Assembly: GCA_018060845.1 (NCBI GenBank)
Contig: JAGOVG010000002.1
Location: 23,581 to 87,580, forward strand
Length of the DNA stretch: 64,000 bases
Direction of reading: 5' to 3'
DNA from: Candidatus Woesebacteria bacterium
GTDB lineage: Bacteria > Patescibacteriota > Microgenomatia > UBA1400 > UBA12108
Under the pieces are notes generated by a model that worked only from the letters and a program-made list of their open reading frames with translations, did not search any database and was not told where the DNA came from. The position numbers and the translations under genes are program-made. Below, one piece after another: positions 10,237-39,446 of the stretch. Within the stretch, counting starts at the first letter, position 1, and the number at the start of each line of letters is the position of its first letter.

Positions 10237-11046
10237 ATGAACAATACTATTAATGGGCTAAGCGTCGCCTTAGCTGTCTACAACGAAGAATCTAGTTTGG
10301 CTGAGTGCTTAGATAGTATCAAAGACTTGGCGCATGAAATAATAATAGTCGACGGTAACTCGAGCGACAATACAGTCCAAATCGCTGAAAGTTACGGCGC
10401 CAAGGTCATCCATGAGTCCAATCGCCAAAACTTTCACATTAACAAGCAGTTAGCAATTGACGCCTGTACTGGTGACTGGGTGCTACAGCTAGACGCCGAT
10501 GAACGTGTCAGCTCTATGCTAGCTAATGAAATTAAGCAGGTTATTAGGGACCCAGGTGCCAAAGATGCTTATTATCTAAAGCGGCGCAACTACTTTCTCG
10601 GTCGTTTCATGAATAAAGGAGGAATGTATCCTGATCCAGTCATCCGCTTATTCAAAAAGGGGAAGGCCAAGCTACCTCAAGCTAGCGTACACGAGTTAAT
10701 GGCGGTCGATGGTACTCTAGCCTGGCTTCACAACGACTTGATCCATATCGCGGACCCAACATTTACTCGTTATCTACTCCGTAGTAATAGGTACACCACC
10801 CTAACGTCTCTCGACTACGCGAGAGATAATATTGGTACGAGCACTGTCACTATCCTCAACTATATGCTCCTCAAACCATTTGTCCGTTTTGTAACCATTT
10901 ACTTCCGACACAAAGGTTTCCAGGATGGTTTTCCCGGCTTTGTCTTTGCACTATATTCAGGCCTACATATCGCGAGTTCGTATGTTAAATACTGGGAAAA
11001 AAAGACAACCAACCAATCAACCTCTATGAAACATGATTGGAATTAG
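10237..11046 (+). CDS. GT2 glycosyltransferase, WaaE/KdtX-like
   Basis: LSVALAVYNEESSL, IIIVDGNSSDNT, LQLDADE, YYLKRRNYFLGRFMNKGGMYPDPVIRLFKKG. Confidence 0.75.
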   Translation: MNNTINGLSVALAVYNEESSLAECLDSIKDLAHEIIIVDGNSSDNTVQIAESYGAKVIHESNRQNFHINKQLAIDACTGDWVLQLDADERVSSMLANEIKQVIRDPGAKDAYYLKRRNYFLGRFMNKGGMYPDPVIRLFKKGKAKLPQASVHELMAVDGTLAWLHNDLIHIADPTFTRYLLRSNRYTTLTSLDYARDNIGTSTVTILNYMLLKPFVRFVTIYFRHKGFQDGFPGFVFALYSGLHIASSYVKYWEKKTTNQSTSMKHDWN

Positions 11047-15475: not shown

Positions 15476-15482
15476 TACTTCT

Positions 15483-17291: not shown

Positions 17292-17293
17292 TT

Positions 17294-18919
17294 ATGAAAA
17301 AATATACTCTTGCTCTCATTATTGGTATTGCCGCTCTCTTGCGTTTACCATTCCTCAACTCTCACATGGACACTCTTTATGGCGACGAAGTGGCACTTGG
17401 CTACAACGCCTTTGCGATCCGTGAGACTCTCCGAGATGAGTTTGGGCGTTTTATGCCGCTCCAGTTTGAGTCTTGGGGGGATCAAAAAAATCCAGTGTAT
17501 ATTTATGCAACAGCACTGACTCAGCTAGTAACTGGTCCCACAATGGCGAGTGTTCGCATCCCCTCTGCTATTGTGGGAGTACTCGCAGTCTACCTAACTT
17601 ACCGGCTAGTTATACTCCTTAAGCTGGGTAGTAGCGTGGCATTATTCTCAGCACTCCTCCTCGCTGTGAGTCCGTGGCACATCCATATTAGCCGGGGTGG
17701 GTACGAGGCTAATGTGGCACTCACCTTAGGCCTCGGTAGTGTAGTCCTACTATTCTCCCGACGCTTTGCACTATCTGCACTCCTCCTCGCACTCTCCGCC
17801 TATACCTACTACACCACTAAGATGTTTGCGCCAATCCTCTTACTCTTTGCCTGGGTCTACATGATTGACTGGTCCAAGTACAAAAATAGTATCAAGCCAT
17901 TCGTCAAATACTGGCTACTGTCCTTATTTTTTGTGATCCCAATTATTTATCTCGCGCTCTTTAAAGGTGGGCAAATCCGTTTTCAGAGTATTAACATATT
18001 CGTTGATAAAACTGTAACACCTAGGGTTGAGCGTGCCCGCAACTTCTTTGATAACCCAGAGAGTCTGGGGGCAAAACTCAGCGAGAACAGGTTCACCTAT
18101 CATCTGAGTGACTTTGTCATGTACTACCTAGAGAACTTTTCTGGGCAATTCCTCTTTGTAGGCGGGGATAGTAATGTGCGTTACGGTCTCGCCGGCCATG
18201 GCATGCTCTATTTGCTAGATGCACCACTTATCTTAATGGGTCTGATACTTCTGTATCATAAGAATCGGCGTGTTTGGTACTTCCTCGTAGCCTGGCTGCT
18301 GCTCGCCCCACTCCCAACAGCCCTTGTTGGTCGAGCGTATGGCTTGCGTAGTCTCGCCATGCTTCCAATCCCCCAGATCCTGGCAGCCTACGCCCTCACG
18401 TCTTGGGTAACAAACATAAAAAAATCCAAATTTACATTGTTGCTTTTTTCATTGTTCGTTATTCTCTATACCTTCTCCGTAGTCAATTGGCTCCATCGTT
18501 ACGTCTATCAATATCCCGCCTACGGGCGATACTGGTACGATGCCCCTATGCAAGATGCAGTAACTTATGCCAAAGAACGAGAGGATAAATATGATCAGAT
18601 CATTATCAGTCAGAGCTACGGCGAGGTCTCGATGTATTATGCATTCCTAAACAAGGTTCATCCCGACGTCTATAGGGCAGCCAAAGCCAACAAAGTCACA
18701 GTCGACGGCGTACCAATGGTCAAGCTTGGCAAATACTACTTTGGCGACATCAGGCCACGTGGACCGATTGAGAAGATGGATATCCCATACAATACTCTGA
18801 TCCTAGTCCAGCCATATTTTGAATACGGCGAAGGCACAATTATAGCTCGTGATGACGGCCGCCCTATTTATCGAGTCTTTGAGTTTCCAACAGTCCACAT
18901 GAAAGCTAAAGACCAATGA
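17294..18919 (+). CDS. Polytopic membrane glycosyltransferase, GT-C fold (PMT/ArnT-like)
   Basis: ATG 17294 (MKKYTLALIIG...). GDEVALGYNAFAIRE motif. Multi-TM. Confidence 0.6.
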   Translation: MKKYTLALIIGIAALLRLPFLNSHMDTLYGDEVALGYNAFAIRETLRDEFGRFMPLQFESWGDQKNPVYIYATALTQLVTGPTMASVRIPSAIVGVLAVYLTYRLVILLKLGSSVALFSALLLAVSPWHIHISRGGYEANVALTLGLGSVVLLFSRRFALSALLLALSAYTYYTTKMFAPILLLFAWVYMIDWSKYKNSIKPFVKYWLLSLFFVIPIIYLALFKGGQIRFQSINIFVDKTVTPRVERARNFFDNPESLGAKLSENRFTYHLSDFVMYYLENFSGQFLFVGGDSNVRYGLAGHGMLYLLDAPLILMGLILLYHKNRRVWYFLVAWLLLAPLPTALVGRAYGLRSLAMLPIPQILAAYALTSWVTNIKKSKFTLLLFSLFVILYTFSVVNWLHRYVYQYPAYGRYWYDAPMQDAVTYAKEREDKYDQIIISQSYGEVSMYYAFLNKVHPDVYRAAKANKVTVDGVPMVKLGKYYFGDIRPRGPIEKMDIPYNTLILVQPYFEYGEGTIIARDDGRPIYRVFEFPTVHMKAKDQ

Positions 18920-20699: not shown

Positions 20700-22079
20700 A
20701 TGAAATTAAATAAATTAACAATAATCGGAAGTGTCATTCTATGTATAGCTTTTGCATTATCAGGGACATTTGTTTCAGTACACCGATTCTATCAATTTGA
20801 TTCCTTTTACTATGATTTTGGTATTTTTGATCAAGCAATTTGGCGAGTCTCACAATTTAGTGCGCCAATAATAGATCATTATGTTGTTGGTGGATCATGG
20901 ATATTTGGCGATCATTTTAGCCCAGCTCTAATGTTGCTCGCCCCCATCTACTGGGCTACACACGCTCAAGAGGCCATATTCTTAGTTCAAGCTGCATTTG
21001 CAGCCTTAGCAGGGCTTGTCTTGTACAAGACAGCATATGCACTAACTAGTAATAATATTATCTCTCTCACAGTCCAAGTGGTTTTTTATCTATTTACTGG
21101 CCTACAAAACGCAGTGATTACAGATATCCATGAGTTAACATTCGCTACTCTCCCGATCTCAGTGGTTCTATATTCCCTCGTCACGCGTAATAAGCATATG
21201 TATATATTCTCATCACTATTTCTACTCCTCTTCAAAGAATCAACATTCCTCGTTATTTGTGGTATTCATTTCTATACTTGGTTAAAAGTAAAAGAATGGC
21301 GAAATACGGCTATTTTGCTCTCTATACTTAGTATTATTTATGCTTATTGCGTAATAACCTTTGTAATCCCAGCTTTTTCAAACTACTATCAATACAACTT
21401 TTTGTCTGGACACACCATTCGGAGTGCGATCAGCTCGCTCTATGACAACCCCATCAAGATAAAAACGGTGGTCGATAGTCTCACTAGCTTCTCATTTGCC
21501 GCGATATTTACACCAGCACTCTGGCCAACATACTTAGCTCATTACTGGGCACGATTTTTATCCACCGCTGGTTCGCGCTGGGAAATAGGACTTCACTACA
21601 ACGCTGAAATTGCACCTATATATGCTTTCTCATTGATGCTCATCTTACATAAAATAACTATTCACAAGAAGATGGCAACTCAGTTAGTGGTTGCTTTAGT
21701 TGTTGTAGCCATTGCACTCTATCAAAACTATGTTCGGCTGAAGATGCCCTTCTTAATGGCGACCAATCCCGCACTCTATCTTGCATCAGATCGAACAGTC
21801 GAAATACGAAAATATCTTAAACAAATGCCATCAGATCAAATAATTATGGCACCAAATCATCTAGCTGCCCATCTCACACATAAAAAAGTACTGCTCGCTC
21901 GCGATAAATATAAGGATTACGATCCAGAATACATAATATTTGATACTAATCCAGATCAAAGTGGTAATAACTGGTACGGTTTGAAAGATAAGGAGCAGTA
22001 TATTAAAAATGTGTCTGCAGATTTTGATTATATGCTGATACAATCAATCTCTAGTTACCAAATTTATAAGAAGAACTGA
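20700..22079 (+). CDS. Polytopic membrane protein, DUF2079-like (putative GT-C glycosyltransferase)
   Basis: 459 aa. [17 protein letters not shown] matches the conserved HF.P segment of the DUF2079 family. Confidence 0.45.
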
Positions 22080-22080: not shown

Positions 22081-23025
22081 ATGTCTAATGACTCTTGGGC
22101 AAACAAGCGAGTAGTTGTAACCGGCGGTGCAGGGTTCCTGGGATCGAATGTAGTTAAACAACTAGAAGATTTAAGCGTTAAGGATATTGTAATTCCTCGC
22201 TCAAATACTAACGATCTAAGATCTCAAGAGGCTTGTGCCAAAGTGGTAGAAGGAGCAGATATAGTCATTCATTTAGCTGCCAACGTCGGTGGTATTGGAT
22301 ATAACCGCGACTTCCCTGGGACGCTCTTTTACGATAACCTCCTAATGGGTGTACATATGATGGAAGAGAGTAGGAAGGCAGGGGTTAAAAAATTTGTCGC
22401 TATCGGAACAATTTGCGCCTACCCAAAATTCGCCCCAATCCCTTTCAAAGAACAAGATCTTTGGGATGGTTACCCAGAGGAGACAAATGCTCCCTATGGT
22501 CTAGCCAAAAAGATGATGTTAGTCCAGAGTACTGCGTACAGGGATCAGTACAACTTTAATAGCATCTTTCTCCTACCAGTAAACTTATACGGTCCAGGTG
22601 ATAACTTTGAGCCGGGCAGTAGTCACGTGATACCTGCGCTTATAAAAAAATTTGTCGAAGCAAAACAAAATGGATCCAATAGCGTCGAAGTATGGGGAGA
22701 TGGCGCTGCTACTCGGGAATTTTGTTATGTTGATGATGCTGCAAAGGGCATTATTCTCGCAACTGAAAAGTATAATAAGAGTGAGCCTGTAAATATCGGT
22801 GCAGGCTTCGAAATATCGATACACGATCTCGCAAACAAAATTTCAGATTTGATAGGTTACACTGGTCAAATAATCTGGGACAAATCCAAACCGAATGGTC
22901 AGCCTAGACGAATGCTAGATGTGTCACGCGCAGCATCCGAATTTGGTTTTACTGCAAACACTACCTTTGACGTAGGATTATCAAAAACAGTGAGTTGGTA
23001 TATCAATAACGTCTCAAAAATATGA
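22081..23025 (+). CDS. NAD(P)-dependent epimerase/reductase, GDP-L-fucose synthase (Fcl/WcaG)-like
   Basis: [15 protein letters not shown] Rossmann motif. [34 protein letters not shown] parallels the Fcl catalytic Y-x3-K region. Confidence 0.65.
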
Positions 23026-23975
23026 ACTGGTATAGGCATTACATCGGGCTATATCTCAGCGTTTTCTCAGTGTTGATGGCTGCCATAGAAACCTACAAAT
23101 ATCCTGGATTTATATTCAAGCATTTCAATTTTTTGCCGATGATATTTTATGTTATTACTGGTATAGCAATAATTGCTATCAAGCTATACCCTCCGCCAAC
23201 TCCAGAAAAATCTCTCCTAGCCATAACATTTAGATTACTGGCAATTTATGCCATCATTTTGACAGGCGTGTTCTATATTATCGAAACAATAACTTATCCG
23301 AACTTCATTTTTACTTACCTCCATGTCCACCTAGATGGTTTGCAGATCCTAACGGGTATGCTTTTTGTATACTTTGCCTTATCAAACCTCATGCATAGAC
23401 ACTATGTCGCTATTCTAAACAGCACCTTTCTTCTGGCCATATCATCACTCTTAATAAACTATGCGATCATCAATACGATAGATGTAACAAAATTAGTGAA
23501 AAAAGAAGTCAAGGCCATGCAGATACCTGCAAAAAATGACGAAGAAAAAAACGAAGCAGGGTGGGGAACAATCTATCTATATGCACAAATGCTAAAACAA
23601 GCTACCCCTGAAGATGCGGTTATCGCAATGCCACCGGCTCAAAATCACTGGCTATACTCTGGCAACATAGTATTGATGCGTTACTTTTTGTACCCACGGA
23701 CTCTCGTTAACGTCAAAGAAACCGCCGACCCTTCAACACTCCTCGAACTACCCGATCAAGAGTATGGTTATGTCGCACTCGTTTGGGGTGAGTCAAATGA
23801 GCGTGATATGTCTCCCTATGGTTGGCCAAAGACTAGTATCAGCGCAGAATATATAGACTACTTTGACCTAAGTAGTAAGACCACTAAACGTGAGGTTAAT
23901 ACAGAATATCTACCCACTGTTTTAAATGAGTCTATATGGGGAGTAATTAAGGTTAAGCAAGAGGAGTCGCAATGA
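23022..23975 (+). CDS. Polytopic membrane protein, unknown function
   Basis: 317 aa, multiple TM helices, C-terminal soluble segment. ATGA overlap. Confidence 0.5.
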
Positions 23976-25267
23976 TGTTAATATTGATCACGCTACTCGT
24001 CATTATCGGTGGGTTCATCCTAGGTAGATATTTATACCCAGCCGCAAACACTCCTATCTCTATAAGTATTGGTATTCTCCTAGGAACAGGTCTCTATATT
24101 ATCTCGATGTATCTACTCGGATTGCTAGGAATTTCGTGGACTCAACTGAGTTTAACTCTGTTGGCATTAATCATATTTGTTGCCTCACTACCTCTCGTTA
24201 GGTTGATTACAAAACCAACCAATGCCCCTAACCAAACTCTAGGAATTGTTGTAGTTTTGCTTTTTACTAGTTTTTCGATGATAGTTAATTCGTATTGGCC
24301 AGTTCGAGACTGGGATGCGCTTACTCTCTATGATTTTAGAGCCAAAGTATTTTCTGAGAACCAAGAAATAGCTGGTATCTTTACTCCCGAGCTCAACTAC
24401 TATTTAGCCTACCCTTTCTTTACTTCTTTAGTTCATACAGTATCTTATGTCTTCGAATATGCGAGGCCTGCAATTTACTACAGTTTGGTATATGCAGTAC
24501 TCGGGTTATTTATCTTCGGCTTTTTGAGTCAAAAGGTGTCAAAAGTTCTTTCAATTATCTTTACCATCTTAGTGATGCTGAGTGGTGACATCTTTAACCA
24601 TTCATTCATTTCTTATACCAACCTCACTTATACTACATATTTTGTAGTCGGGATGCTTACCTTTTCCGAAGGGATAGCAACTAAAAAGATCAAGCTATTG
24701 ATCTTGGGTTCAACGTTGATAGGGGTTATGCAGCACGTTAGATATGATGACCCATTTTGGATCATACCAATGCTAATTTCTGGCTTATTATTTATTAAGA
24801 GTAAAAACTACAAGCCATTACTCATCTCTATTATAATAGTTTTACTATTTAGATTTCTCTGGTCAGGATACAAGAGCGCCATGATGCATGGGTATATGCC
24901 AGTTGGGTCACTAACTACACCTAATTTACTAGAAACATTGCTCTCTACCGATATATTACAACGAGTCGTTGATGTCTCGACATTTTTATATAAAACACTC
25001 TGGCTAAAATATGGAATCCTGATTTACATATTTATCTTTTCAGTTCTGATCTCATGGAGAAAAAAATCAGAACTTCTCCGCCTTAGCCAATTTACTACAT
25101 TTCTCATCCTTGCCATACTTTATTTTGGGACCATAGCAATGAGCTATTTATACGCAAAATGGAACGTAGTTGGAGGGTCCGTTGCACGAATGATGATGAT
25201 CCTAATCCCTACATCATTAGTCTCAGCTTGCCTCGCTCTCGGAGAATATTTTAATGAAAAAAAGTAG
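23972..25267 (+). CDS. Polytopic membrane protein (GT-C-like candidate)
   Basis: 431 aa with about 12 TM helices. WPVRDWDALTLYDFRAK loop. GAGGAG RBS at 23961-23966. ATGA overlap. Confidence 0.45.
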   Translation: MMLILITLLVIIGGFILGRYLYPAANTPISISIGILLGTGLYIISMYLLGLLGISWTQLSLTLLALIIFVASLPLVRLITKPTNAPNQTLGIVVVLLFTSFSMIVNSYWPVRDWDALTLYDFRAKVFSENQEIAGIFTPELNYYLAYPFFTSLVHTVSYVFEYARPAIYYSLVYAVLGLFIFGFLSQKVSKVLSIIFTILVMLSGDIFNHSFISYTNLTYTTYFVVGMLTFSEGIATKKIKLLILGSTLIGVMQHVRYDDPFWIIPMLISGLLFIKSKNYKPLLISIIIVLLFRFLWSGYKSAMMHGYMPVGSLTTPNLLETLLSTDILQRVVDVSTFLYKTLWLKYGILIYIFIFSVLISWRKKSELLRLSQFTTFLILAILYFGTIAMSYLYAKWNVVGGSVARMMMILIPTSLVSACLALGEYFNEKK

Positions 25268-26333
25268 AACTTTAATCTTGGGATATGGCTTAAATCCAGA
25301 TCGAACTGAGGCGATCGCTAAATCAGCAATCAAGCTACAACGTATTCATGGGAAAATTGGCCTAGCCTGCGACATCGTGTCGATCGACCAAATAGTAGGA
25401 ACTGAATCTCTCATAAAATGTATAGTTAACCATCGTAAAATTACAGAGAGATTAATCCAATTAATATCAAATAATCACTACACGCATATTGTGGATGTTT
25501 TTGCCTTACCTATCTCTTCACTCGTTTTTACCAAACCCATCTTGGCGAAATTTCCTGGCATAGTATTTATCAAGGAAATTCAAAATGATTATGGATCTTC
25601 TCGTCATTTAACCTACGAAACACTTATCAGGATAATCGGGAATAACAAAATAATATTTGACTATGTCCGTAAAGCAGCAAATATCTGTTTTAGTCGTAAT
25701 CTAAATCTATGCAACAAATACTCACTCCACTACCTACCAACCTCGATACCCACAAAGCCACTTATGGAAAGACGTTATAAGTCTACTCTGAGTGTTTGCT
25801 ACTTAGGGCACCCTTTAGCCAAAAAAGGCATATCGATATTTCCAGAGATCTTCAAAGACTCTGGGTTCGGCAATAAATCTATAAAATACAGCTTCGCTTT
25901 TAGCGACATTGGGCCTAGAGACGAAGTGATCAAAGAATTTACAGTCGTGGCAGAGGAAAATAATATAAAAATTAACATCGAAGGTAAAGTAGATCCGGCT
26001 ACTTTTTTCCGTAAGAATGATATCTATCTCTTGCCTATCCATGACCAGTTTGGTGCTGCCTCTACACCCAATACTGTGTTAGAAGCGATGGAGGCGGGGT
26101 GCGTCGTTATGACTACTCCTATAGAATCAGTGCAGGGAGTCTTAAATGATCAAAACTCAATCTTGCTAAAAACTATAGATACATCTACGATACATGAAGC
26201 ATTAGTTACTTGCCAGAAAGACATAAAGACCCTACTCAACAAATCAAAAACTGGCAGGAGGGTTATAATTAATAAATATTCTGAAAGTAATTATATTTTA
26301 CATTTAAGGAAATTATATGAAACGAAAAAATAA
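25254..26333 (+). CDS. GT4-like glycosyltransferase (GT-B)
   Basis: C-terminal FGAASTPNTVLEAMEAGCVVMTTP block. The N-terminal half is divergent. Confidence 0.5.
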   Translation: MKKSRTLILGYGLNPDRTEAIAKSAIKLQRIHGKIGLACDIVSIDQIVGTESLIKCIVNHRKITERLIQLISNNHYTHIVDVFALPISSLVFTKPILAKFPGIVFIKEIQNDYGSSRHLTYETLIRIIGNNKIIFDYVRKAANICFSRNLNLCNKYSLHYLPTSIPTKPLMERRYKSTLSVCYLGHPLAKKGISIFPEIFKDSGFGNKSIKYSFAFSDIGPRDEVIKEFTVVAEENNIKINIEGKVDPATFFRKNDIYLLPIHDQFGAASTPNTVLEAMEAGCVVMTTPIESVQGVLNDQNSILLKTIDTSTIHEALVTCQKDIKTLLNKSKTGRRVIINKYSESNYILHLRKLYETKK

Positions 26334-27051
26334 AAAAGAAATTCAGAAGTATTATCAGATCAACGATGTTGCATCTACCTATGACGATCGACGCTTTGTA
26401 GGTAAAGGTGGGGAATATATAAATAGTACCGAAGTCAAAACTACGCTAAACATCATGAAAAAATGTTTGCGCGTCGACTCTCCTAAGATTCTAGATTTAG
26501 GATCAGGTCGTGGCAGGCTCTCTATACCTCTAAAAAAAGCCGGTTATAACACATATTGCCTGGATTCAAGCGTTAGTATGTTATCATTTTTGACTAAAGA
26601 ATTTGGTCGAGAGCATATCTATATCCAATCGGTATTTGACAAACTAGCCTCTAATAACAAATTTGACGGAGTTACTTCTCTTCGTTTTTTTGATCACTTT
26701 GACGAGGCTGATCAGATTAAGATACTGATCAATGTCTCCAAATCATTAAAAAAAGATGGCAAGTTCTTTTTGAGCGGTCTAAGCAGTAGCTCGCTCGAGT
26801 ATCTGGTTTCATTTCTCTATCCTTACGGTAGATACAACTACTACCTACCACCTTCGGCCTACTCCAAAATATTCGCCAAAGCTGGCCTTCGGCTAACTAC
26901 TTACGATAGCGCGTTTTTTATACCACGCGGCGTATTTTTGCATACCAATAATTATCCTAAATTGCAGAGCATCTTAGTAGCTATAGACTCCTTTATGATC
27001 AGATTACTGCCATCACTAGGGGCTATGAAAATTTTTGCACTAGAAAAGTAA
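26317..27051 (+). CDS. Class I SAM-dependent methyltransferase
   Basis: ILDLGSGRGRLS (motif I, GxGxG) and downstream acidic motif II. Confidence 0.65.
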   Translation: MKRKNKKEIQKYYQINDVASTYDDRRFVGKGGEYINSTEVKTTLNIMKKCLRVDSPKILDLGSGRGRLSIPLKKAGYNTYCLDSSVSMLSFLTKEFGREHIYIQSVFDKLASNNKFDGVTSLRFFDHFDEADQIKILINVSKSLKKDGKFFLSGLSSSSLEYLVSFLYPYGRYNYYLPPSAYSKIFAKAGLRLTTYDSAFFIPRGVFLHTNNYPKLQSILVAIDSFMIRLLPSLGAMKIFALEK

Positions 27052-27055: not shown

Positions 27056-28108
27056 ATGATCGCAGTTATCTACGGGACTCGACCAGAAATAATAAAGCTG
27101 AGTCCGATAATCAGATCGGCTATCGAGCAGGAACGTGATCTTGTTACCATTCATACTGGACAGCACTTTTCTCGTAACATGAATGATGTTTTTTTTGACA
27201 ACTTAGAGCTTCCGCGTCCCGATTACGAATTAAATGTAGGCTCCAAATCGCATGCTGAAATGGTCGCCGAGGCACTAGTTGGGATCGAAAAAATATTATT
27301 AAAACATAAGCCAACTATTGTTTTAGTCCAGGGTGACACTAACTCTGCTCTCGCAGGTGCTCTAGCCGCCGCAAAATTAGGGATCAAAGTCGGTCATATC
27401 GAGGCTGGACTTAGGAGCTTTGACCGCCGAATGCCAGAAGAACTAAATCGCGTCCTGATTGACCATATGTCTGATCTGCTTTTTGCACCTACCGATATAG
27501 CCTCTAACTTTTTGCTTAGCGAGGGGATAGATAAGGATAAGATAAAAGTAGTCGGTAATACGATAGCTGACGCTCTCAAATATGGTCTTAAAAAATCAAT
27601 CAATACACCACTACCACTCTCGCAAACTTCAAAACAATACTACCTAGCCACTCTCCATCGTCAAGAAAATGTCGATGATCCGATCATCCTCAAACAAATC
27701 ATAACTAACTTCAAAAGCATTACAAAAGATTTTTCAACCACGCTAGTATTGCCGCTTCATCCTCGAACTAAGCAGCTACTCAGCACGAACAACATCAATA
27801 CCACCGGGATTAGTGTAATCGAACCCCAGGATTACTTTAACTTCCTCTCTTTACTTAGTAACGCGAAATTGGTACTTACTGACTCCGGGGGTATCCAAGA
27901 GGAGGCATGTATCTTAGGGATTCCATGCATCACTCTACGTGACAATACCGAACGACCAGAGACAGTAGAGCTAAAGTCGAATATCCTCGTAGGCAGTGAT
28001 CTAACTCAAACAATTAACGCGATAAACTATTTCGAGTCTCACCAGGATGGCTGGAAGCAGCCATATGGCGAAGGTGATACAGCTGAGAGGATACTTTCGT
28101 CGCTATGA
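27056..28108 (+). CDS. wecB: UDP-N-acetylglucosamine 2-epimerase (non-hydrolysing)
   Basis: MIAVIYGTRPEIIKLSPII, HTGQH, GHIEAGLRSFD, DSGGIQEEA are hallmark WecB/MnaA motifs. Confidence 0.85.
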   Translation: MIAVIYGTRPEIIKLSPIIRSAIEQERDLVTIHTGQHFSRNMNDVFFDNLELPRPDYELNVGSKSHAEMVAEALVGIEKILLKHKPTIVLVQGDTNSALAGALAAAKLGIKVGHIEAGLRSFDRRMPEELNRVLIDHMSDLLFAPTDIASNFLLSEGIDKDKIKVVGNTIADALKYGLKKSINTPLPLSQTSKQYYLATLHRQENVDDPIILKQIITNFKSITKDFSTTLVLPLHPRTKQLLSTNNINTTGISVIEPQDYFNFLSLLSNAKLVLTDSGGIQEEACILGIPCITLRDNTERPETVELKSNILVGSDLTQTINAINYFESHQDGWKQPYGEGDTAERILSSL

Positions 28109-30342
28109 AAATCCTCTATATGGTCGACTACTATCAGCCGCAGATAGGGTACAACGAGTACTATCTCCCATCTGAGTGGTCGCGACTTGGCCATGATGTC
28201 ACAATCCTGACTTCTGATCACTACTATCCTTTTCCTAACTATGAGGAGACTGTAGGTAAACTGCTCGGTGCACGTCGTCAAAAACCAGGGATTTATAAGC
28301 AAGACAAGATCACGGTTATTAAAAAGCCCATGCAGTTTGAAGTCTTTACTAGAGCAGTATTCGGTGGTCATGAGTCAATAATTAACAAAATACGACCCGA
28401 CATTGTAATCGTAAATAAGTCATCTAGCTATAACTCATTCCAAGCAGCTAGGTTAAAAAAGAAATATCACTACAAATTAATCACATATGATGCCCATTTG
28501 ATGTCTGGGTACAACGCCGTCGGAAATGTTGCGTTCAAAGATTTTGTTTATTGGCTGTATCGCTTGACCATATCGAGATATATGAACAAGAGAGTAGACA
28601 AATACATCGCAGTGCAAGAAGGCACGGTTGATGTGATGATCAACTTGTATGGTCAAAAACCTGTAGAACACATACCGCTTGGTACCGATCCTGAGCGTTT
28701 TAGGTATGATATTGCAGCAAGGCGGGAAACAAGAAAAAAATATCAGATTCCGATCACTGCGAGCGTTGGGATATATACTGGCAAAATAATCCCTACTAAA
28801 GGCGTATCTATCTTATATGAGGCATTTGGTAGACTAGCCAAAAAAAATCCCAACCTACACCTCTTAATCGTTGGTTCAGGAGGTGCTGACTACATCAAAC
28901 AATGCGAAAGTCTAGTTGACTCAAAATATCTCAAGCGAATCCATCTAGTTGGATTTAAGGAAACCAAAGAGTTATACAAATTCTACTCAGCATCAGATTT
29001 TGGGATCTGGCCTCTAGAAGAATCTACTTCAATGAATGATGCTGCAGCGTGTGAAATACCCTTTATAGCTAACGACGAAGCCGGGGTGAAGCAAAGGTTC
29101 AAAAATGACAATGCGCTTAAATATCTGAGAGGTGATAGTAGAGACCTCTCAGTTAAAATGGAGTACCTAATTAACAACCCCAAGGAAGCTAAAAACATGG
29201 GAAAAAGGGGTAGAGAGTTAATTTTGAATGAGCTTAGTTGGAACAAGATCGCAAAGCAGTATTTATCTGTCATAAAGGGTGACGTAGAGCAAGACCTAAG
29301 TAAAACCCTTGATTGGCTAGAAGAAGCGCAGCGTGTAACTGGAGACGGAGGTGTGTCAGCATACCATATGATAATCAGAGGGTGGGCACCTTCTTTTATC
29401 GAAACGACTGGATATATTATATCGACGTTTCTAGATGCCGCTAAACATAAGAATAATAAAATATATCTTCGTCTCGCTATCAAGATGGGGGATTTCATTA
29501 TCAGCAATCAGCTAGGTAATGGTGGGTATCGAACTTATACCAAAGGGCATGTTGAATTATCTGAACCTACGATCTTTAACACAGCTCAAGACATTATTGG
29601 ATTAGTCGACCTATATCTTGTAACTAAAGACAAAAAGTATCTTAACTCAGCTCAGCTAGCCGGAGATTTTTTAGTTTCTTCTCAAAATCAGGATGGATCA
29701 TGGACTCAGTTTACCCATAATAGCGTGCCAAAAACATATCACTCACGAGTAGCTTATGCACTCCTAAAATTATATGAAATCAATCGCAAGTTAACATTTA
29801 AGAAAGCAGCGATAAAGCAGCTAGATTGGGTGCTATCAAGACAGCTAAAGAATGGTTTTGTCACTAATGCCGAGTTGCCAGTCGCTAAATATCCTTTTAC
29901 CATCACTCATACGATTGCGTATGTCGCCGAAGGATTGTTATACAGTGCAAAAATCTTAAAATCAAACAAATATCAAACAGCAGCTCTAAGAATTATTGAT
30001 AAAGTTCATCGGCACTATCTCTCATACAACGAACTCCCGTCATATTTTGATCAAAACTGGAAACCACAGGAGAAGTTTGGATGTCTGACTGGTGAAGCTC
30101 AGTTTGCGATCCTATTTATGGAGACGTACAAAATCAAGAACGATCAGTCTTATCTATCAAGCGCATACAACCTTATTAATAGAATAGGGGTAGACATGTC
30201 GGCTACGGGTGGTATCCCAGGTTCCAGACCAATATACGGAGATTTATTGCACAACCGGGGTTATTGTCGCTTATCTTATATCAACTGGGCAGCAAAGTTT
30301 ACCGCTGATGCCGAAATGTTATTCTTAAGTATATGGAAATAA
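28105..30342 (+). CDS. Bifunctional-looking protein: N-terminal GT4 glycosyltransferase fused to a C-terminal alpha/alpha-toroid (six-hairpin, QW-repeat-like) domain
   Basis: 745 aa. The GT4 region spans roughly residues 1-390. The C-terminal portion (about 350 aa) has repeated Q..(D/N)G(S/G)(W/Y) units (QNQDGSWTQ, NQLGNGGYRT, RQLKNGFVT) reminiscent of prenyltransferase/terpene-cyclase or AGE-type toroids. Confidence 0.55.
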   Translation: MKILYMVDYYQPQIGYNEYYLPSEWSRLGHDVTILTSDHYYPFPNYEETVGKLLGARRQKPGIYKQDKITVIKKPMQFEVFTRAVFGGHESIINKIRPDIVIVNKSSSYNSFQAARLKKKYHYKLITYDAHLMSGYNAVGNVAFKDFVYWLYRLTISRYMNKRVDKYIAVQEGTVDVMINLYGQKPVEHIPLGTDPERFRYDIAARRETRKKYQIPITASVGIYTGKIIPTKGVSILYEAFGRLAKKNPNLHLLIVGSGGADYIKQCESLVDSKYLKRIHLVGFKETKELYKFYSASDFGIWPLEESTSMNDAAACEIPFIANDEAGVKQRFKNDNALKYLRGDSRDLSVKMEYLINNPKEAKNMGKRGRELILNELSWNKIAKQYLSVIKGDVEQDLSKTLDWLEEAQRVTGDGGVSAYHMIIRGWAPSFIETTGYIISTFLDAAKHKNNKIYLRLAIKMGDFIISNQLGNGGYRTYTKGHVELSEPTIFNTAQDIIGLVDLYLVTKDKKYLNSAQLAGDFLVSSQNQDGSWTQFTHNSVPKTYHSRVAYALLKLYEINRKLTFKKAAIKQLDWVLSRQLKNGFVTNAELPVAKYPFTITHTIAYVAEGLLYSAKILKSNKYQTAALRIIDKVHRHYLSYNELPSYFDQNWKPQEKFGCLTGEAQFAILFMETYKIKNDQSYLSSAYNLINRIGVDMSATGGIPGSRPIYGDLLHNRGYCRLSYINWAAKFTADAEMLFLSIWK

Positions 30343-31205
30343 TAATAAAAGCGTTGATTCGCGTTTACTCGCACCCTAATAATCAAGGAAAAATATTCCT
30401 CACAACCTTACGACTAATCTGGTGGATGATAAACCGACACTTCCTTAAATTGAATGTAATTGTCGAAATGTTGCCAGGTGCAAAGCTAATCTGTGATCCT
30501 AAAAGCTCATATGGTAGTCTAGTTTTCTACAATTCCTTACCAGAGTACGCCGAACAAATGTTTATGTATCAATATGTGCAAGCAAATGACAAAGTAGTCG
30601 ACGTTGGCGCACATATCGGCAGTGAAACGGTCTTACTTGGCTCAAAGCTAACTGGAGGGCGTATGTACAGTTTTGAACCAACGCCTTCAGTTAAACCTCT
30701 CCTCGTCGCAAATATTGGCATCAACAATTTGCACGATCGGGTAGTGGTCGAAGATATGGCAGTGTCAGACCATGTTGGCTCAACCCAATTCTATCTATCG
30801 ACCGAGTCAGAGGTGAATAGTCTCCACAATCATGAGGGATCAAAAGCGATAAGCATCAAAACCACCACATTAGATATCTACGCCAAAAAACTTAAGATAG
30901 ACCATATACATTTACTCAAAATAGATGTCGAAGGTCATGAGCTCGCTGTAATCTCTGGTTCTAAATCTCTCTTATCTAAACACAACATTGATGTGATAGT
31001 ATTTGAAGTTAATGATCAATCAGGTAGCTGTTACCAGGATAACCTTAAGGCTCGAGAATTACTAACTCGCTCAGGATACAAGCTCTATTTAGTCTCGCAA
31101 GATGGTGTGTTATCTAACTATGTACACTGTCCCCAGGTGCATAATTGCATAGCTATCTCCCCAAAAATTAAACCATCACGGATGAAAAATCTCAGGTATG
31201 AATAA
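30333..31205 (+). CDS. FkbM-family methyltransferase
   Basis: VVDVGAHIGSETV, YSFEPTPS, IDHIHLLKIDVEGHE are FkbM-domain signatures. Confidence 0.7.
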   Translation: MEIIIKALIRVYSHPNNQGKIFLTTLRLIWWMINRHFLKLNVIVEMLPGAKLICDPKSSYGSLVFYNSLPEYAEQMFMYQYVQANDKVVDVGAHIGSETVLLGSKLTGGRMYSFEPTPSVKPLLVANIGINNLHDRVVVEDMAVSDHVGSTQFYLSTESEVNSLHNHEGSKAISIKTTTLDIYAKKLKIDHIHLLKIDVEGHELAVISGSKSLLSKHNIDVIVFEVNDQSGSCYQDNLKARELLTRSGYKLYLVSQDGVLSNYVHCPQVHNCIAISPKIKPSRMKNLRYE

Positions 31206-31920
31206 CGCGCTACTAATGCACCCAACTTATCTTTTTTGGAAAGGCATCTTAAACGATCGCTTTAAGCATGAGCAGATCAGTGTTCTTGATTATGGGTGTG
31301 GTAATGGGATACTGCTAGATCTGCTCGACGCGTCAAGTCTTAAAAAGTATCAGGGATACGACACTAGCTCCGATGCAGTTACTGTTGGTAGCACTAAATA
31401 CAAAGATAATAAAAACGTCAAATTAATAGCTATCAAGCCTAATTCGCGGCCAAATTTTGGTTTAGCAAGTTCATACGATTTAGTAATGCTAATCGGCGTG
31501 TTTCAATATTTAGAAAAAGGTGAAATCGATCATGTCATACACGATGCCAAACGGACGCTTAAAAAAGGCGGTTACCTTATGTTTAGCACTGTTCTGGATG
31601 ATGGTTTTTATAAGTTTATTAATCTATACCGATTTGTTTTTCCCAACCACTACGTTAATCGAAATAATATGGAGAATAGCCTGAAAAATGCTGGCTTTAA
31701 ACTAAGAGTCAGTAAAGCCAGGGGACTCATACTAGGTCCTCTAGTCTCTCACGGTCTGGTAATTCCGTTTGATGCGATTGACCACTATATTTTTGGGGTT
31801 AGGGGCAAAATAGGCATGCTCGGCAAGTTAGTTCGCTTGCTAGCCTTTCCGTTTATGTATCTCGAACTGCTAATACCGATTGACCGCGGATATACCTGGT
31901 ACGTCGTGGCCAAAAAATGA
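31198..31920 (+). CDS. Class I SAM-dependent methyltransferase
   Basis: VLDYGCGNGILLD motif I. Confidence 0.65.
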   Translation: MNNALLMHPTYLFWKGILNDRFKHEQISVLDYGCGNGILLDLLDASSLKKYQGYDTSSDAVTVGSTKYKDNKNVKLIAIKPNSRPNFGLASSYDLVMLIGVFQYLEKGEIDHVIHDAKRTLKKGGYLMFSTVLDDGFYKFINLYRFVFPNHYVNRNNMENSLKNAGFKLRVSKARGLILGPLVSHGLVIPFDAIDHYIFGVRGKIGMLGKLVRLLAFPFMYLELLIPIDRGYTWYVVAKK

Positions 31921-33476
31921 AAAAAATACTCTTTCTTTTAGCCACAGCTTTCATCTTAATCTTTTGGCAAGCACTACACTTGCCATTCGAAATACCTGAC
32001 GAGCAGTCGCACTTTGCGACAGTCAACTTTTTAGTCGACCAGGGGCGTATTCAAGGAGAAAAAGAGTATGACCTCTCTCGCGAGCAAGAGCAGGTAGAAT
32101 ACATCTTTGGCGTTATGACAGATGGAACGAATAAATATGCTCACAACCCTGGACATCGTATTGATTACTCCGAAGAAGCGAGTGCAAAAAATGAAGAACT
32201 TATTAAGTCGCTAAATACTCCTGATAATCGCTCGACTTACACACTACATCAAGGAGCTGTATATCCACCACTCTATTACTATCTAACAGGGCATTTTTAT
32301 CGCTTAAATTACGGATCAGATATCATTAGTCGGCTCTACACATCACGATTTTTTTCGACGTTCTTAGTCATAGCCACGATCTACGTTTACTTTCTGACTG
32401 GTAGGCTCATATGGTCATCAACTCAGATGGGATACTTTTTTGCGAGCCTAGCGCTTTTTTATCCGATGACAACGTACATCGGAGCAGGTGTAAATCCTGA
32501 CAATCTACACAATCTACTCTTTTCATTCTTCGTTTATGTCTGTATACGAGTAGTCAAGGGTGGTCTAACTTATATCGACACATTCAATTTAGCCGTACTC
32601 TTGGTCCTAGATCTACTTACCAAACCACAGGCGTACATCATGATCCCTCTAACTGTGGTTGCAATCTTGCTCTCTAACTCCAAGTTGAGTCTAAGAGTGG
32701 CACTCAGGAGCGGATTATTATATTTTGCAGTCCTTTTGATCGGAGCAGGGTGGCACGAAATCCCAAAATTTTATAGCGGTAACCCATACATTGCTGACTC
32801 GAGCGCCACCTCAATCTCTGGCATCTCGCTGCTTAGTTATCTCAAAATGATCTTCCACAAATTTACCAGCGAGTTAGTAGTCTGGTACTGGGGCGTGTTC
32901 AAATGGACTACAATCATTGTTCCAAGACTGTGGTGGTGGAGCGGGATACGGTTGATACTACTTTCTATCCTAGGATTAGTATATTTGTCTTATCGAGCTC
33001 TTAGATCAAAACACTTTGAATTTATTCATAAAGTAATAATCTTTGCGGTTGTTGCTAATAGTATTTATGTCGCAGCTCTTGTGTATTATGACTGGAACTA
33101 CTATCACCTATCAGGTAGATCGCTCGGTTTTCAAGCTCGATACTTTATGCCACTCTTATCCGCTCAGCTAATACTTATCGTGGAAGGCGTAAGAGCTTTC
33201 ACTACTAAGGTGCATCTTGGCAAGCTATTACTAGGGCTGATATTTACATATTTCTTCACACTTCAACTAGTCGCAGTATTTACCGTTGCCTCAAGCTACT
33301 ATAAAACCTCTAACATCACATCATTTATTGCTCAGGCGAGTAGGTATAAACCGCCATATTTCCAGTCTGACTTTTGGTATTTATGGCTAGGCCTATACTT
33401 AGTCAGCATGATTTATGTAGCAACATTAATCATTATTCAGATCTCAAGAGTCAAACTTAGCTCAAAAAAAGGATAA
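31917..33476 (+). CDS. Polytopic membrane protein (DUF2142-like / GT-C candidate)
   Basis: 519 aa. EIPDEQSHFATVNFL loop after TM1. Multi-TM. ATGA overlap. Confidence 0.45.
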   Translation: MKKILFLLATAFILIFWQALHLPFEIPDEQSHFATVNFLVDQGRIQGEKEYDLSREQEQVEYIFGVMTDGTNKYAHNPGHRIDYSEEASAKNEELIKSLNTPDNRSTYTLHQGAVYPPLYYYLTGHFYRLNYGSDIISRLYTSRFFSTFLVIATIYVYFLTGRLIWSSTQMGYFFASLALFYPMTTYIGAGVNPDNLHNLLFSFFVYVCIRVVKGGLTYIDTFNLAVLLVLDLLTKPQAYIMIPLTVVAILLSNSKLSLRVALRSGLLYFAVLLIGAGWHEIPKFYSGNPYIADSSATSISGISLLSYLKMIFHKFTSELVVWYWGVFKWTTIIVPRLWWWSGIRLILLSILGLVYLSYRALRSKHFEFIHKVIIFAVVANSIYVAALVYYDWNYYHLSGRSLGFQARYFMPLLSAQLILIVEGVRAFTTKVHLGKLLLGLIFTYFFTLQLVAVFTVASSYYKTSNITSFIAQASRYKPPYFQSDFWYLWLGLYLVSMIYVATLIIIQISRVKLSSKKG

Positions 33477-33489
33477 TCAACGAATCGAT

Positions 33490-34617
33490 ATGCGATATAT
33501 AATGCTGGCCGTAGTCATCTTCTTAAGTTCTGCAAATCTTGCTCGGTCTGCCGATTATAAGTACTCTCAGTACTGTTTGATTGAGTTTCGTAAACAGTTT
33601 TCCCTAGATACCCATTACCCAGAGTATAGTAGAAACTGTAGTGATGGTACCGAATTTCGTGGCAATATCGACGACCCCGAACTTTATGTTTTAGCTGGCC
33701 AACATTATATGCGAGGTGAGTCTCCAACAGCTATTAACTGGGAGCTGCAGCCGCTAATAAAGTACTTTTTTGGTATGTTCGCCCAAAATCCTTTGGTTGC
33801 ACAGTATCTCTATGCTCTAGGTGTATTTTACTTACTGTATAAGTTATCAAAACAAATACTGTTGCGCAGAAATGTTTTAGTCCATCTAATACCCGGTCTA
33901 CTTTTTCTAACAGACCACTTGACTATGGAGCAATTAAACAATCCGTATCTAGATCTAGGTCAAACTTTCTTTATCTTGTTATTTATCTATTATTTATGGC
34001 GCTATCTCGCTACAAATCATAGAGTCTCTTTCGTCGCACTGGTACTAGGACTAGTTGCACTCAGTAAATCATTCTCAATTGGTATTCTGCTTGGTTTATT
34101 CAGCATTATTTCCATCTATTTAATTGACAAAAAAAAGCTGGGAAAATATCTCAGAAGCCTATATATTTCGGTGGTTGTGTACCTTCTAGGTTATGCAGCT
34201 TTCTTTGTATACCATAAGCCTCAAGACTTTATAACCCTCCACATAGATATCTTGAGATACTACAAATCATACGTCCCTGAGTATCCTAAAGGTGAGATTT
34301 TTCGCATTATCTTTACTGGTCAGTGGCGGACTTGGTGGGATAACCACGACTTAATTAGTGTAAGCACTTGGAGTATCCTGTGGCCAATTTCCATACTTTC
34401 AACGCTAACAATAATCAACCAAAAGCTGCGTCAGAACCCACTTATATTTATGAGTTCGATCTGGATAGGATTATACTTACTATTTGTCTCTCTGAGATTA
34501 GTTTTTCCTCGGTATCTACTACCAATCTTACCGTTTGCTTACCTAAACTTAACTTACCTGATATTTAACGTTATCCCTGGGATAATTAAAACTAGGGAGT
34601 CTTCACGTTCTTCATGA
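33490..34617 (+). CDS. Membrane protein with N-terminal signal peptide and periplasmic domain, unknown function
   Basis: MRYIMLAVVIFLSSANLARSA signal-like N-terminus, Cys-containing soluble segment, then about 8 TM helices. Confidence 0.45.
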   Translation: MRYIMLAVVIFLSSANLARSADYKYSQYCLIEFRKQFSLDTHYPEYSRNCSDGTEFRGNIDDPELYVLAGQHYMRGESPTAINWELQPLIKYFFGMFAQNPLVAQYLYALGVFYLLYKLSKQILLRRNVLVHLIPGLLFLTDHLTMEQLNNPYLDLGQTFFILLFIYYLWRYLATNHRVSFVALVLGLVALSKSFSIGILLGLFSIISIYLIDKKKLGKYLRSLYISVVVYLLGYAAFFVYHKPQDFITLHIDILRYYKSYVPEYPKGEIFRIIFTGQWRTWWDNHDLISVSTWSILWPISILSTLTIINQKLRQNPLIFMSSIWIGLYLLFVSLRLVFPRYLLPILPFAYLNLTYLIFNVIPGIIKTRESSRSS

Positions 34618-36388: not shown

Positions 36389-37501
36389 ATGGATCCAGAA
36401 ATCAAACCTCTCTTACCAAAAGAACCACCAACCACTCCTATCCTACAGGTGGTGGGTGAAGTGTCACCTAGCACTAGCGGGGTAGAGTCAGTTATCGCAA
36501 AAAAACCAATCGCCAAGAAAACTCTTTATCTCTATATTGGTCTCGGCATCTCCGTCATGTTAGTCATCGGCTTAGTAGCATCAGCGCAGGCCAAGTTTGC
36601 CCGCTACCAAAATAGCCAAAAAGTAGCTGTGGTCACGCCATCTCCTACTCCCGCCGCCACGCCTACCGCTACCCCCGAGCCCACCGAGGAACCAACTCCC
36701 TCACCCTCAGTTAAGCCCTCGCCATCACCTTCGCCAAAACTATCGCCATCCCCCAAGCCCTCACTCTCTCCCTCACCTAGTCCAACTCCAGTGGTCGTCG
36801 TCGACAATACTTTTACCTGTGGTACCTACAGTGGTGATAGCTATCCCGCACTCCCCGCCTACGGCAAGACTCCTCTATACGCCACCCTCTACCCATCCGG
36901 TGGTACCTCCGGCGGGATTAGTCTCGCTGGATTTGAATGGGATTTTGATGGCGATGGTGTCTGGGAGGGTGGAGTCGCCAATAGTAAGGTCGGCCGCACT
37001 TTTGATAAGTCAGGGACAGTCACGCCAAAGTTCCGCGCCAAAGGCAACAATGGTGCCGTTGGTCCTACCTGTACCTACCCGTACCAGGTGGTCGCTGGCG
37101 GTAGCACGGCATTCGAGAATGATATTTTGATGGTAGATAAACTAAGTCTCGAAACAACAGTTAGCAAATCCAAGAACAATCATACTTTCACCGGGTCTCT
37201 CACCAAATTTAACAATGACAATAGCACCATCTATGTCCCATTTATCATTATCAGTACCAAAAAAGATAATAGAACGATAGTGACCACCTATACCAACAAT
37301 ACGGCCGGCGGCAATTATGGCGCGACCACAGGCAACCCTTACATGGATGCAGGTACTGCCTACTACACCCAGCTCTGGATCAGTAAGACAATAGCCAATG
37401 GTACGTATGATGGGACCATGAAGATCCAGTACAAAGATGCTGCAGGTGTAGTAGTCTCGGATGCAACCAACGCGACCTACAAAATTACTGTCACAGATTA
37501 A
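36389..37501 (+). CDS. Membrane-anchored surface protein: N-terminal TM, Pro/Thr/Ser-rich linker, PKD-like domain, Asn/Thr-rich beta domain
   Basis: [21 protein letters not shown]. Linker [64 protein letters not shown] (PKD WDFGDG-like). C-terminal region dense in N-x-T/S. Confidence 0.6.
36640..36790 (+). repeat. Low-complexity coding repeat (PT/SP dipeptide-like iterations) inside the 36389-37501 CDS
   Basis: Degenerate CCn-TCn/ACn iterations encode the PT/SP-rich linker. Such a tract is a potential length-variable region. Confidence 0.6.
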
Positions 37502-38168: not shown

Positions 38169-39446
38169 ATGTTATCTACTGTCTTAAAATTAGGCAAATC
38201 TAAAGGGTTAAAATCTGCTATCCTCATGACTATTGGCAACGTTGGTTCAACTGGTGTTGCTGCCGTTGCCATGATTATTTTTTCTAGACAACTTGGTCCT
38301 GAGCAATTTGGCATTTTCTCTGTGCTCTTTTCGCTTATGCTAATAATCTCTCGAATAGGAGATATGGGTATTAACATCGCAGTCTCTCGGGCTATCGCCC
38401 AAAATCAAGAGAACAAAACCCAGAGCCTCTCTTATGCTCAAAACGGATCCTACTTAAAAGCCATCATTATGGCAGCTGTAATAATGATTGGTCTGCTCAC
38501 TACTCCATTTATCACCGAGACACTCCTGAGTCTAACTCCTGATTTTTTGCCGATGGTACGAGCCGTCATAATACTTTCTACATCTGTGGTTGTCTACGAA
38601 TACATCAACTCTCTCCTTCAGGCTAGACAGTTCTTTGGTCTCTCAGTCTTAACCAACACAGTTCAATCTTCACTCAAGCTACTCTTGGCGCTTGCGACAT
38701 TAGTCTTTGCAGGAATTAACTTAAACACTATCACCCTAGGATACATGATCTTGCCACTTATCGGAGCAAGTGTTGGCTTTATGGCAATAAATGTGCGCGA
38801 GCTCTTGCCTAGCTATAATCCAAAAATCACAAAATCGATACTAAATGTGGTTCGATGGACCAGTATCTCTATCCTAGCTAGTGCTGTCGCCGAGAATGTC
38901 GATGTTTTAATCGTCCAGAACTATCTCTCAGCTCATGAGACAGGACTTTATGCAGCCGCAACTAGGATTGCGACTGTTGCTTCGCTAATCGGTTGGTCGC
39001 TCGGTACGGTCCTAAACATGCGAGTTGCAAAATATAAAGACAAAGTAAACCTTGATCGCTACCTAAAAAAAGGCATCATGCTCGCTATCGTTTCGCTCCT
39101 TGCGACTATCGCTCTCTGTTTTATTTCGTACCCTATTGTTACATATACTATCGGGTCAGCCTACCTGAGCGTCATCCCAACCTTAAATATTCTATTAATA
39201 TCTACCGCCTTCTTAACAGCCACTACACCGTTTGTTGCTTTGTTTTATGTCTTTGATTACCCAAGATATTTTGCAGTCTCTGGGATTATCACGGCACTTA
39301 GCTTGCTCATCTCTGACATAATCTTGATACCTTCCTACGGGTTAATCGGTGCAGGGTGGGCGAGAGTGATCACTAGACTAGTAGTCGGTATCTATACTTT
39401 ATATATTGCTTACACCCTATACCAAAAGACCTATGGCAAAAAGTAA
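38169..39446 (+). CDS. Polysaccharide/oligosaccharide flippase, MOP superfamily (Wzx-like)
   Basis: 425 aa with about 12 TM helices. Organisation is typical of Wzx/RfbX flippases and it sits inside a GT cluster. Confidence 0.6.
   Translation: MLSTVLKLGKSKGLKSAILMTIGNVGSTGVAAVAMIIFSRQLGPEQFGIFSVLFSLMLIISRIGDMGINIAVSRAIAQNQENKTQSLSYAQNGSYLKAIIMAAVIMIGLLTTPFITETLLSLTPDFLPMVRAVIILSTSVVVYEYINSLLQARQFFGLSVLTNTVQSSLKLLLALATLVFAGINLNTITLGYMILPLIGASVGFMAINVRELLPSYNPKITKSILNVVRWTSISILASAVAENVDVLIVQNYLSAHETGLYAAATRIATVASLIGWSLGTVLNMRVAKYKDKVNLDRYLKKGIMLAIVSLLATIALCFISYPIVTYTIGSAYLSVIPTLNILLISTAFLTATTPFVALFYVFDYPRYFAVSGIITALSLLISDIILIPSYGLIGAGWARVITRLVVGIYTLYIAYTLYQKTYGKK

Follow-up and report, generated by a model that had tools for sequence, protein, structure and literature searches.

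The gene described here lies at positions 28105-30342 on the forward strand of a 64,000-nucleotide window (64 kb, the whole stretch of DNA that was analysed; contig JAGOVG010000002.1 of assembly GCA_018060845.1) from a Candidatus Woesebacteria bacterium, and it joins a glycosyltransferase (GT) of family GT4 to a six-hairpin toroid. The open reading frame (ORF) starts with ATG and encodes a 745-aa protein, of which residues 1-387 (28105..29265, + strand) form a retaining GT-B domain of the GT4 type and residues 388-745 (29266..30342, +) form an (α/α)6 toroid of a cytoplasmic, uncharacterised family. Its ATG overlaps by 4 nt (ATGA) the stop codon of an upstream wecB gene (27056..28108, +), whose product is a non-hydrolysing UDP-GlcNAc 2-epimerase that makes UDP-N-acetylmannosamine (UDP-ManNAc), as judged from Pfam Epimerase_2 (365.8 bits) and NCBIfam TIGR00236 wecB (384 bits, cutoff 210; NeuC 72, cutoff 236). 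At its 3' end the gene overlaps by 10 nt the start of a gene for an FkbM-family methyltransferase (30333..31205, +; Pfam Methyltransf_21, TIGR01444), which is followed by a class-I S-adenosylmethionine (SAM) methyltransferase of the Methyltransf_23/11 type (31198..31920, +).

That the N-terminal half of this protein is a GT4 enzyme, as an earlier note on this DNA had read it, is borne out by Pfam, Foldseek, conserved motifs and the split sister genes described below. Glyco_transf_4 (residues 23-198, 39.5 bits, gathering cutoff 28.5) and Glycos_transf_1 (residues 206-371, 63.1 bits, gathering cutoff 26.4) both score above threshold, and the Foldseek matches are GT4 enzymes only, namely MshA, BshA, PimB', PimA, GlgM and ManT (E 1e-17 to 1e-13, TMt 0.7-0.8). 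Retaining GT-B enzymes carry a diphosphate-binding motif, G(R/K)xxxxKG, and an acidic EX7E motif. The former corresponds to the conserved G226-K227-I-I-P-T-K232-G233, while the acidic pair is E306...D312, an EX5D-like variant and not the canonical EX7E, with each residue at least 90% conserved; the variant motif (W-P-L-E-E-S-T-S-M-N-D-A-A-A-C-E-I-P, aa 303-319, 29011-29061, +) is kept by all clade homologs. UDP-ManNAc is proposed as the donor, which we infer only from the 4-nt overlap with wecB.

The C-terminal half is predicted with confidence to comprise twelve helices in six hairpins that close into an (α/α)6 barrel, in agreement with the toroid that the earlier note had suspected. Residues ~390-745 match the six-hairpin clan in Pfam (C5-epim_C at 36-41 bits, Pec_lyase, GH127, LANC_like and SQHop_cyclase), the NCBIfam matches to toroid families are all sub-threshold and far below the cutoffs, and none of the matching Pfam or NCBIfam models covers more than a fraction of the domain. 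The QW-like repeats seen by the earlier reader proved to be far beyond chance, since a strict hairpin pattern matches five times in residues 388-745 against 0.08 expected and none of 5000 shuffles reaches five. Four of these five matches (residues 404, 464, 522 and 575) are hairpin units: unit 1 (aa 404-417, WLEEAQRVTGDGGV, 29314..29355, +), with W404, Q409 and G416 invariant or near-invariant; unit 2 (aa 464-475, FIISNQLGNGGY, 29494..29529, +); unit 3 (aa 522-533, FLVSSQNQDGSW, 29668..29703, +), a near-perfect QW motif that was aligned to those of squalene-hopene cyclase (SHC); and unit 4 (aa 575-586, WVLSRQLKNGFV, 29827..29862, +). The family profile matches the QW motifs of SHC six times. 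As modelled, the domain is an (α/α)6 toroid for which no single known family stands out, and its identity to the structural matches is only 9-18%.

In the full-length model (pLDDT 91, pTM 0.85), toroid helix 1 (388-412) follows the last GT4 helix (379-386) almost without a break, and this suggests that the inter-domain arrangement of the modelled protein is fixed. No solved structure in a Foldseek search with this model spans both halves (TMq <=0.41). To this extent the architecture is non-standard, as had been claimed, but fusions of this type have arisen many times.

The fusion itself is genuine and specific to one Microgenomates/Woesebacteria lineage. Full-length homologs form nine protein clusters of 743-771 aa at 97-42% identity, and the two halves share a single open frame in seven assemblies that are independent and come from different samples (L001-L007), including a clade at only 51-55% identity; L004, also fused, is a near-duplicate of L003 from a second sample, and the ninth homolog, for which no contig was mapped, is 42% identical. 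The nearest genomes are those of Candidatus Woesebacteria, Microgenomates, Daviesbacteria and Pacebacteria. Across 25 related loci of the candidate phyla radiation (CPR), six have one open frame over both halves and ten have the halves as adjacent separate genes, three of them with only an in-frame TAA in between; one gene separates the halves in a further six (a TylF-like O-methyltransferase in the locus examined, L018), and other genes do so in the remaining three (WecB, joined by a dehydrogenase in L016, the locus examined). In the sister loci the GT4 is a separate gene of 387-388 aa that ends in ...LSWxxIAKxYLx-TAA, exactly where the window protein reads on. This is a textbook case of gene fusion, with two adjacent, co-translated genes that would have become one when the stop codon between them was lost in this lineage. 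Many of the third-party annotation (TPA) records of metagenome-assembled genomes (MAGs) in this set (L006-L009, L012-L015, L017, L019-L021, L024 and L058) are labelled 'uncultured Pseudomonadales' or 'Gammaproteobacteria', labels that look wrong because the closest named relatives are Woesebacteria/Microgenomates.

An alignment of 82 diverse members of the toroid family has 24 invariant columns, among them E, H, C, K, D, Q and several Y/W, and the conserved residues sit at the N-terminal ends of helices 2, 4, 6, 8, 10 and 12. Invariant are E433-T-T-G-Y437 in helix 2 (29401..29415, +; candidate active-site residues), F491 in helix 4 (with T493 and Q495 at least 90% conserved), Y545 in helix 6, H602 and Y606 in helix 8, C660, G663 and Q666 in helix 10, and W728, K731 and D735 in helix 12; a second, near-invariant His lies in helix 1 (domain position 10, ~residue 397). 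The active-site face of six-hairpin enzymes is usually formed where the inner helices begin. The even-numbered helices might hence represent a candidate active-site face with a putative conserved pocket. One fusion homolog, P0006 (L003/L004, 52% identity), has Ile at the position of C660 (YAIPTGE vs FGCLTGE), and either this Cys is dispensable or the P0006 copy is inactive.

The family to which the toroid belongs is large. Its profile retrieves more than 5,700 proteins from a 90%-clustered database and, in a 50%-representative library, 4,469 clusters with E<1e-3 and 945 with E<1e-30. The majority of members are stand-alone proteins, 350-430 aa in length, that occur in CPR bacteria, DPANN and other archaea, Myxococcota, Campylobacterota, Acidobacteriota, KSB1 and others, and their source names are contradictory ("pectate lyase", "terpene cyclase/mutase", "GH88", "prenyltransferase β"). 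The family is cytoplasmic, because a hydrophobic N-terminal segment is present in only 1 of 236 members. A periplasmic polysaccharide lyase or hydrolase of the AlgL/BcsZ kind was rejected, because signal peptides are absent from the family and its fusion partners are cytoplasmic enzymes. In the literature on PF25840, YPO2471 and toroid/GT fusions, no characterised member was found. Judged from its sequences, it is a separate, unannotated family within the six-hairpin superfamily.

Members of this family have been joined to GT4, GT2, GT26, LicD, SAM-methyltransferase, formyltransferase and N-acetyltransferase domains, and recurrent partners, fused or adjacent, include Formyl_trans_N, an AAC(3)-like N-acetyltransferase, GT2, GT4 (in both orders) and LicD; a class-I SAM methyltransferase recurs in Campylobacterales, Vibrio, Oligoflexia and Nitrospirae. 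These fusions are independent events, since the toroids of the various fusions remain 30-38% identical, whereas none of the partner GTs is related to the GT4 of the window. In loci from Campylobacterales, Vibrio kasasachensis, Oligoflexia and Nitrospirae (L035, L037-L041, L043, L045-L048, L052, L053 and L056), the toroid is the N-terminal part of a 578-606-aa protein, the C-terminal part of which is a class-I SAM methyltransferase in the nine proteins scanned, and seven of these loci have the gene directly downstream of wecB. Two tandem toroid paralogs of 429 and 447 aa occur in a Blastocatellales MAG (L059, 6001-8648), where they adjoin WecB, a methyltransferase, an Asn-synthase-like amidotransferase, a formyltransferase and a heparinase II/III-like protein.

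Across phyla, the commonest neighbour of the toroid family is a non-hydrolysing WecB. The module WecB-GT4-toroid-FkbM methyltransferase-class I methyltransferase is kept in nearly all CPR loci, with an FkbM homolog downstream of the toroid in most, and two further genes upstream in the window, for a GT1-like glycosyltransferase (25254-26333, +) and a SAM methyltransferase (26317-27051, +), are syntenic in the fused clade. Of 27 CPR loci, 25 have a WecB homolog, as do 15 of 36 distant loci; among 32 distant loci, at least 13 have a WecB-like gene no more than ~5 kb from the toroid, and in eight of these it is directly upstream. Epimerase_2 is likewise the top neighbour family (12 matches among 102 flanking genes of 27 loci), and the adjacent 2-epimerases that were tested are all non-hydrolysing WecB equivalogs (346-513 bits, cutoff 210), which led us to reject a NeuC-type hydrolysing 2-epimerase and a nonulosonic-acid context; no NeuB/NeuA-type family is among the 25 commonest neighbour families. 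In addition, P0202 is a fusion of the toroid with the ManNAc transferase WecG/TagA, the gene of which overlaps the toroid gene in Ponticaulis koreensis. As the family is usually encoded near an enzyme that makes UDP-ManNAc, the toroid probably has a role in surface-sugar assembly.

A WecC-type UDP-sugar dehydrogenase occurs in 15 of 27 CPR loci, where it lies between WecB and GT4/toroid (L008, L012-L019, L021-L025 and L058), and in 7 of 36 distant loci; it is missing from L009-L011 and L020, and none was found in the 64-kb window or in any fused locus (L001-L007) over the stretch fetched. The fusion thus correlates with loss of the uronic-acid branch. Even in fused loci without the dehydrogenase, the conserved residues of the toroid are kept, and the common denominator would therefore be a WecB-derived manno-configured 2-acetamido sugar and not a uronate. 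A uronic-acid C5-epimerase is chemically attractive for the loci that have the dehydrogenase, but as a universal explanation it is weakened by these absences.

Taken as a tentative best reading, the fusion protein would be a bifunctional cytoplasmic enzyme, in which GT4 transfers WecB-derived ManNAc and a catalytic toroid processes the same residue. The translationally coupled WecB would supply UDP-ManNAc, the GT4 half would most likely transfer ManNAc onto a lipid-linked surface-glycan intermediate, and the toroid might act on the same manno-configured 2-acetamido sugar after, or together with, the transfer, its substrate being ManNAc in the window lineage and ManNAcA in sister lineages. The putative pocket would be lined by E433-T-T-G-Y437, F491/T493/Q495, Y545, H602/Y606, C660/Q666 and W728/K731/D735, and the neighbouring FkbM and class-I methyltransferases would act next. 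Among the possible roles of the toroid, we rank catalytic glycan processing first because of the invariant polar residues. The likeliest chemistry might be a cofactor-independent, glycan-level step of the isomerase/epimerase type, as suggested by analogy with AglQ and Agl32.

AglQ of Haloferax volcanii and Agl32 (VNG1058H) of Halobacterium salinarum are archaeal N-glycosylation epimerases/isomerases with single-domain all-α toroids that alter a sugar within dolichol phosphate (DolP)-linked N-glycan precursors; AglQ was shown to be soluble and is co-transcribed with the SAM methyltransferase AglP, and both proteins lack the catalytic residues of GlcE, DSepi1 and the superfamily of N-acylglucosamine 2-epimerases (AGE), with cellobiose 2-epimerase as best structural match, besides AGE and GH88 enzymes (PMC3827465, PMC12624080, PMC13308652). 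The toroid family shares this context, namely a soluble single-domain toroid in a lipid-linked-glycan cluster with a methyltransferase as neighbour: the best structural matches of the window toroid are also AGE enzymes (5ZIG ranks fourth), and the AglQ-AglP co-transcription parallels the adjacency and fusions of toroids and methyltransferases. However, AglQ and Agl32 take hexuronic acids as substrate, whereas the window has no UDP-sugar dehydrogenase to make a uronic acid, and, unlike the window toroid, they have not been described as fused to a glycosyltransferase. Residues 28-123 of AglQ, rebuilt from published mutagenesis primers, score 7.8 bits against the hidden Markov model of the toroid family (shuffle maximum 7.0), and hhalign of the family with AglQ-like proteins, of which the N-terminal fragments were compared, reaches a probability of 96% (E 3e-9), though with the alignment shifted by one hairpin. 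Both the weak score and the shifted match indicate, on these partial sequences, that AglQ and the toroid family belong to the same superfamily and to different families. No AglQ-named family is among the NCBIfam matches of the window protein at E up to 10, and a primer-based Agl32 scan of metagenome contigs gave no match.

A broader proposal, possible though doubtful, is that the toroid represents a widespread new enzyme class (bacterial and archaeal, with ~4,500 clusters at 50% identity) with WecB as partner, which would carry out a new cofactor-independent reaction on manno-configured 2-acetamido sugars in lipid-linked glycans. Candidate reactions are a glycan-level epimerisation of the type ManNAcA to L-GulNAcA, or a toroid-fold de-N-acylase that unmasks an amine for formyl-, acetyl- or methyl-transferases. 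If so, evolution would repeatedly have welded the toroid to the transferase that acts before or after it.

A toroid without catalytic activity would fit the fusion partners, which are all transferases with a sugar acceptor to bind. Such a toroid would bind the acceptor or the lipid carrier (polyprenyl-diphosphate), or serve as a scaffold, and so present the lipid-linked intermediate to its partner, be it a GT or a methyl-, formyl-, acetyl- or phosphotransferase. By sequence, the family profile has its best PDB match in SHC, together with other isoprenoid-binding toroids, many of the invariant residues are aromatic (W404, W427, F491, Y437, Y545, Y606, Y720 and W728), and the high full-length pTM suggests rigid packing against the GT. 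Given the invariant polar residues on which the catalytic role is ranked first, we consider this alternative unlikely.

A hydrolytic toroid seems no more probable than a purely binding one. It might be a cytoplasmic glycosidase or trimming enzyme resembling MmpH, or a (metallo/cysteine) amidase, which would take off either the 2-N-acetyl or a transient N-formyl group for the partner transferases. However, a canonical pair of catalytic carboxylates could not be mapped, P0006 lacks the Cys, neither a formyltransferase nor an N-acetyltransferase is present in the window, and a hydrolase fused to the transferase that builds its substrate risks futile cycling; moreover, we know of no toroid-fold amidase. 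MmpH, which works with ManT in the mycobacterial methylmannose-polysaccharide pathway, is an endo-mannosidase of another sequence family, is not fused to a GT, and its pathway has no link to WecB or ManNAc.

It is very improbable that the toroid is a true member of one of the known families, i.e. the class II terpene cyclases and prenyltransferases, LanC, GlcE-type C5-epimerases, AGE 2-epimerases or GH127. The earlier note had likened the domain to terpene cyclase/prenyltransferase, LanC and AGE toroids, and the likeness holds for the superfamily fold but not for membership, with the defining residues absent. There are weak Pfam and NCBIfam matches to all these families, the QW repeats are present, and C5-epim_C even exceeds its gathering cutoff of 23.3, yet every family fails on defining residues or coverage and was rejected. 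With four QW units and six repeat-level matches to SHC, the domain has the repeats of a class II terpene cyclase, but the acid of these enzymes is missing, because P-x-v-F-N-T stands where SHC has DxDDTA: 'PDVDDTA' of SHC aligns to 'PtvFNTg' of the family (P488-T-I-F491-N-T493 in the query), so that DxDD(TA) becomes x-F-N-T and the catalytic Asp residues are lost. Class II terpene cyclases such as SHC and drimenyl-diphosphate synthase are also βγ didomain enzymes of isoprenoid metabolism, whereas the window protein has a single toroid in a glycan-assembly context.

As for GlcE, the C5-epim_C (PF06662) match spans only 45 of 188 profile positions, GlcE itself matches over only 25-28 residues, the β-hairpin and β-sandwich domains of the full-length enzyme are absent from the window protein, and the catalytic positions E499, Y500, N510, Y560 and Y578 (human numbering; PMC13308652) lie outside every alignment obtained. 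In the AGE superfamily, the catalytic residues of R. albus CE are H184, E187, H243 and H374 (PMC13308652); in the 82 toroid members, H602 is the only invariant His at the start of an even helix, and the pair of His with a third His/Glu is not found. AGE enzymes (N-acylglucosamine 2-epimerase, cellobiose 2-epimerase, mannose isomerase and YihS) are 9-15% identical to the toroid, and their substrates, free reducing sugars, are no obvious intermediates in the window context. The Cys-Cys-His zinc site of LanC is likewise lacking, as the toroid family has one invariant Cys and one invariant even-helix His. GH127 β-L-arabinofuranosidases use a Cys nucleophile within a Cys3-Glu zinc site. With its one invariant Cys, the toroid family lacks this site as well, and the GH127 Pfam match is partial (profile positions 77-251 of 376).

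Finally, although relatives carry two separate genes, in three cases with only an in-frame stop in between, a sequencing or assembly artefact (such as a frameshift) that joined two genes was rejected as having practically no chance, given the seven independent fused assemblies, the nine full-length clusters and a junction that folds as a near-continuous helix.

What is new here is a large, unannotated, cytoplasmic toroid family with a conserved putative pocket and a cross-phylum coupling to WecB and ManNAc transfer, while the protein as such varies an already-known design, in which a multidomain enzyme of glycan assembly includes a six-hairpin processing domain. Cyclic β-1,2-glucan synthase (GT84, a GH189 cyclisation toroid and GH94) is comparable, but it is a membrane-anchored giant whose GT and toroid belong to other families, and beyond the shared fold there is no sequence relationship with the window fusion. 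The surface glycans of CPR/Patescibacteria are essentially unexplored, though these cells depend on surface contact with their hosts, and UDP-ManNAc- or ManNAc(A)-dependent glycan assembly provides the toroid family with a testable functional anchor, for which the GT4-toroid protein, with its defined candidate catalytic residues, represents a natural bifunctional construct for biochemistry. Should the toroid prove to be a glycan-level epimerase or some other new modifying enzyme, it could account for where some sugars of bacterial and archaeal polysaccharides come from and allow the correction of thousands of annotations.

The window as a whole looks like one unidirectional surface-glycan island, in which each of the 51 ORFs with 200 aa or more is on the + strand and an Rfam scan of the 64 kb for tRNA, rRNA and riboswitches gave no match. 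It encodes GT2 and GT4 enzymes, several PMT_2 (GT-C) paralogs, Wzx (38169-39446), Wzy_C (47762-49426) and NAD-dependent epimerases, besides DUF2079 (20700-22079) and DUF4012 (57357-59372) proteins. The PMT_2/ArnT-like GT-C paralogs number at least four or five (7078-8730, 17186-18919, 42176-43522 and 49423-50841, with 13703-15475 assigned by synteny with L001), an unusually rich repertoire for a small-genome CPR bacterium. Large ORFs (317-624 aa) without a Pfam match, at an E cutoff of 1e-3, or 0.1 where tested, lie at 8693-10222, 11033-12697, 13703-15475, 15417-17291, 23022-25267, 31917-34617 and 36389-37501, and several of them are syntenic in relatives at 32-38% identity.

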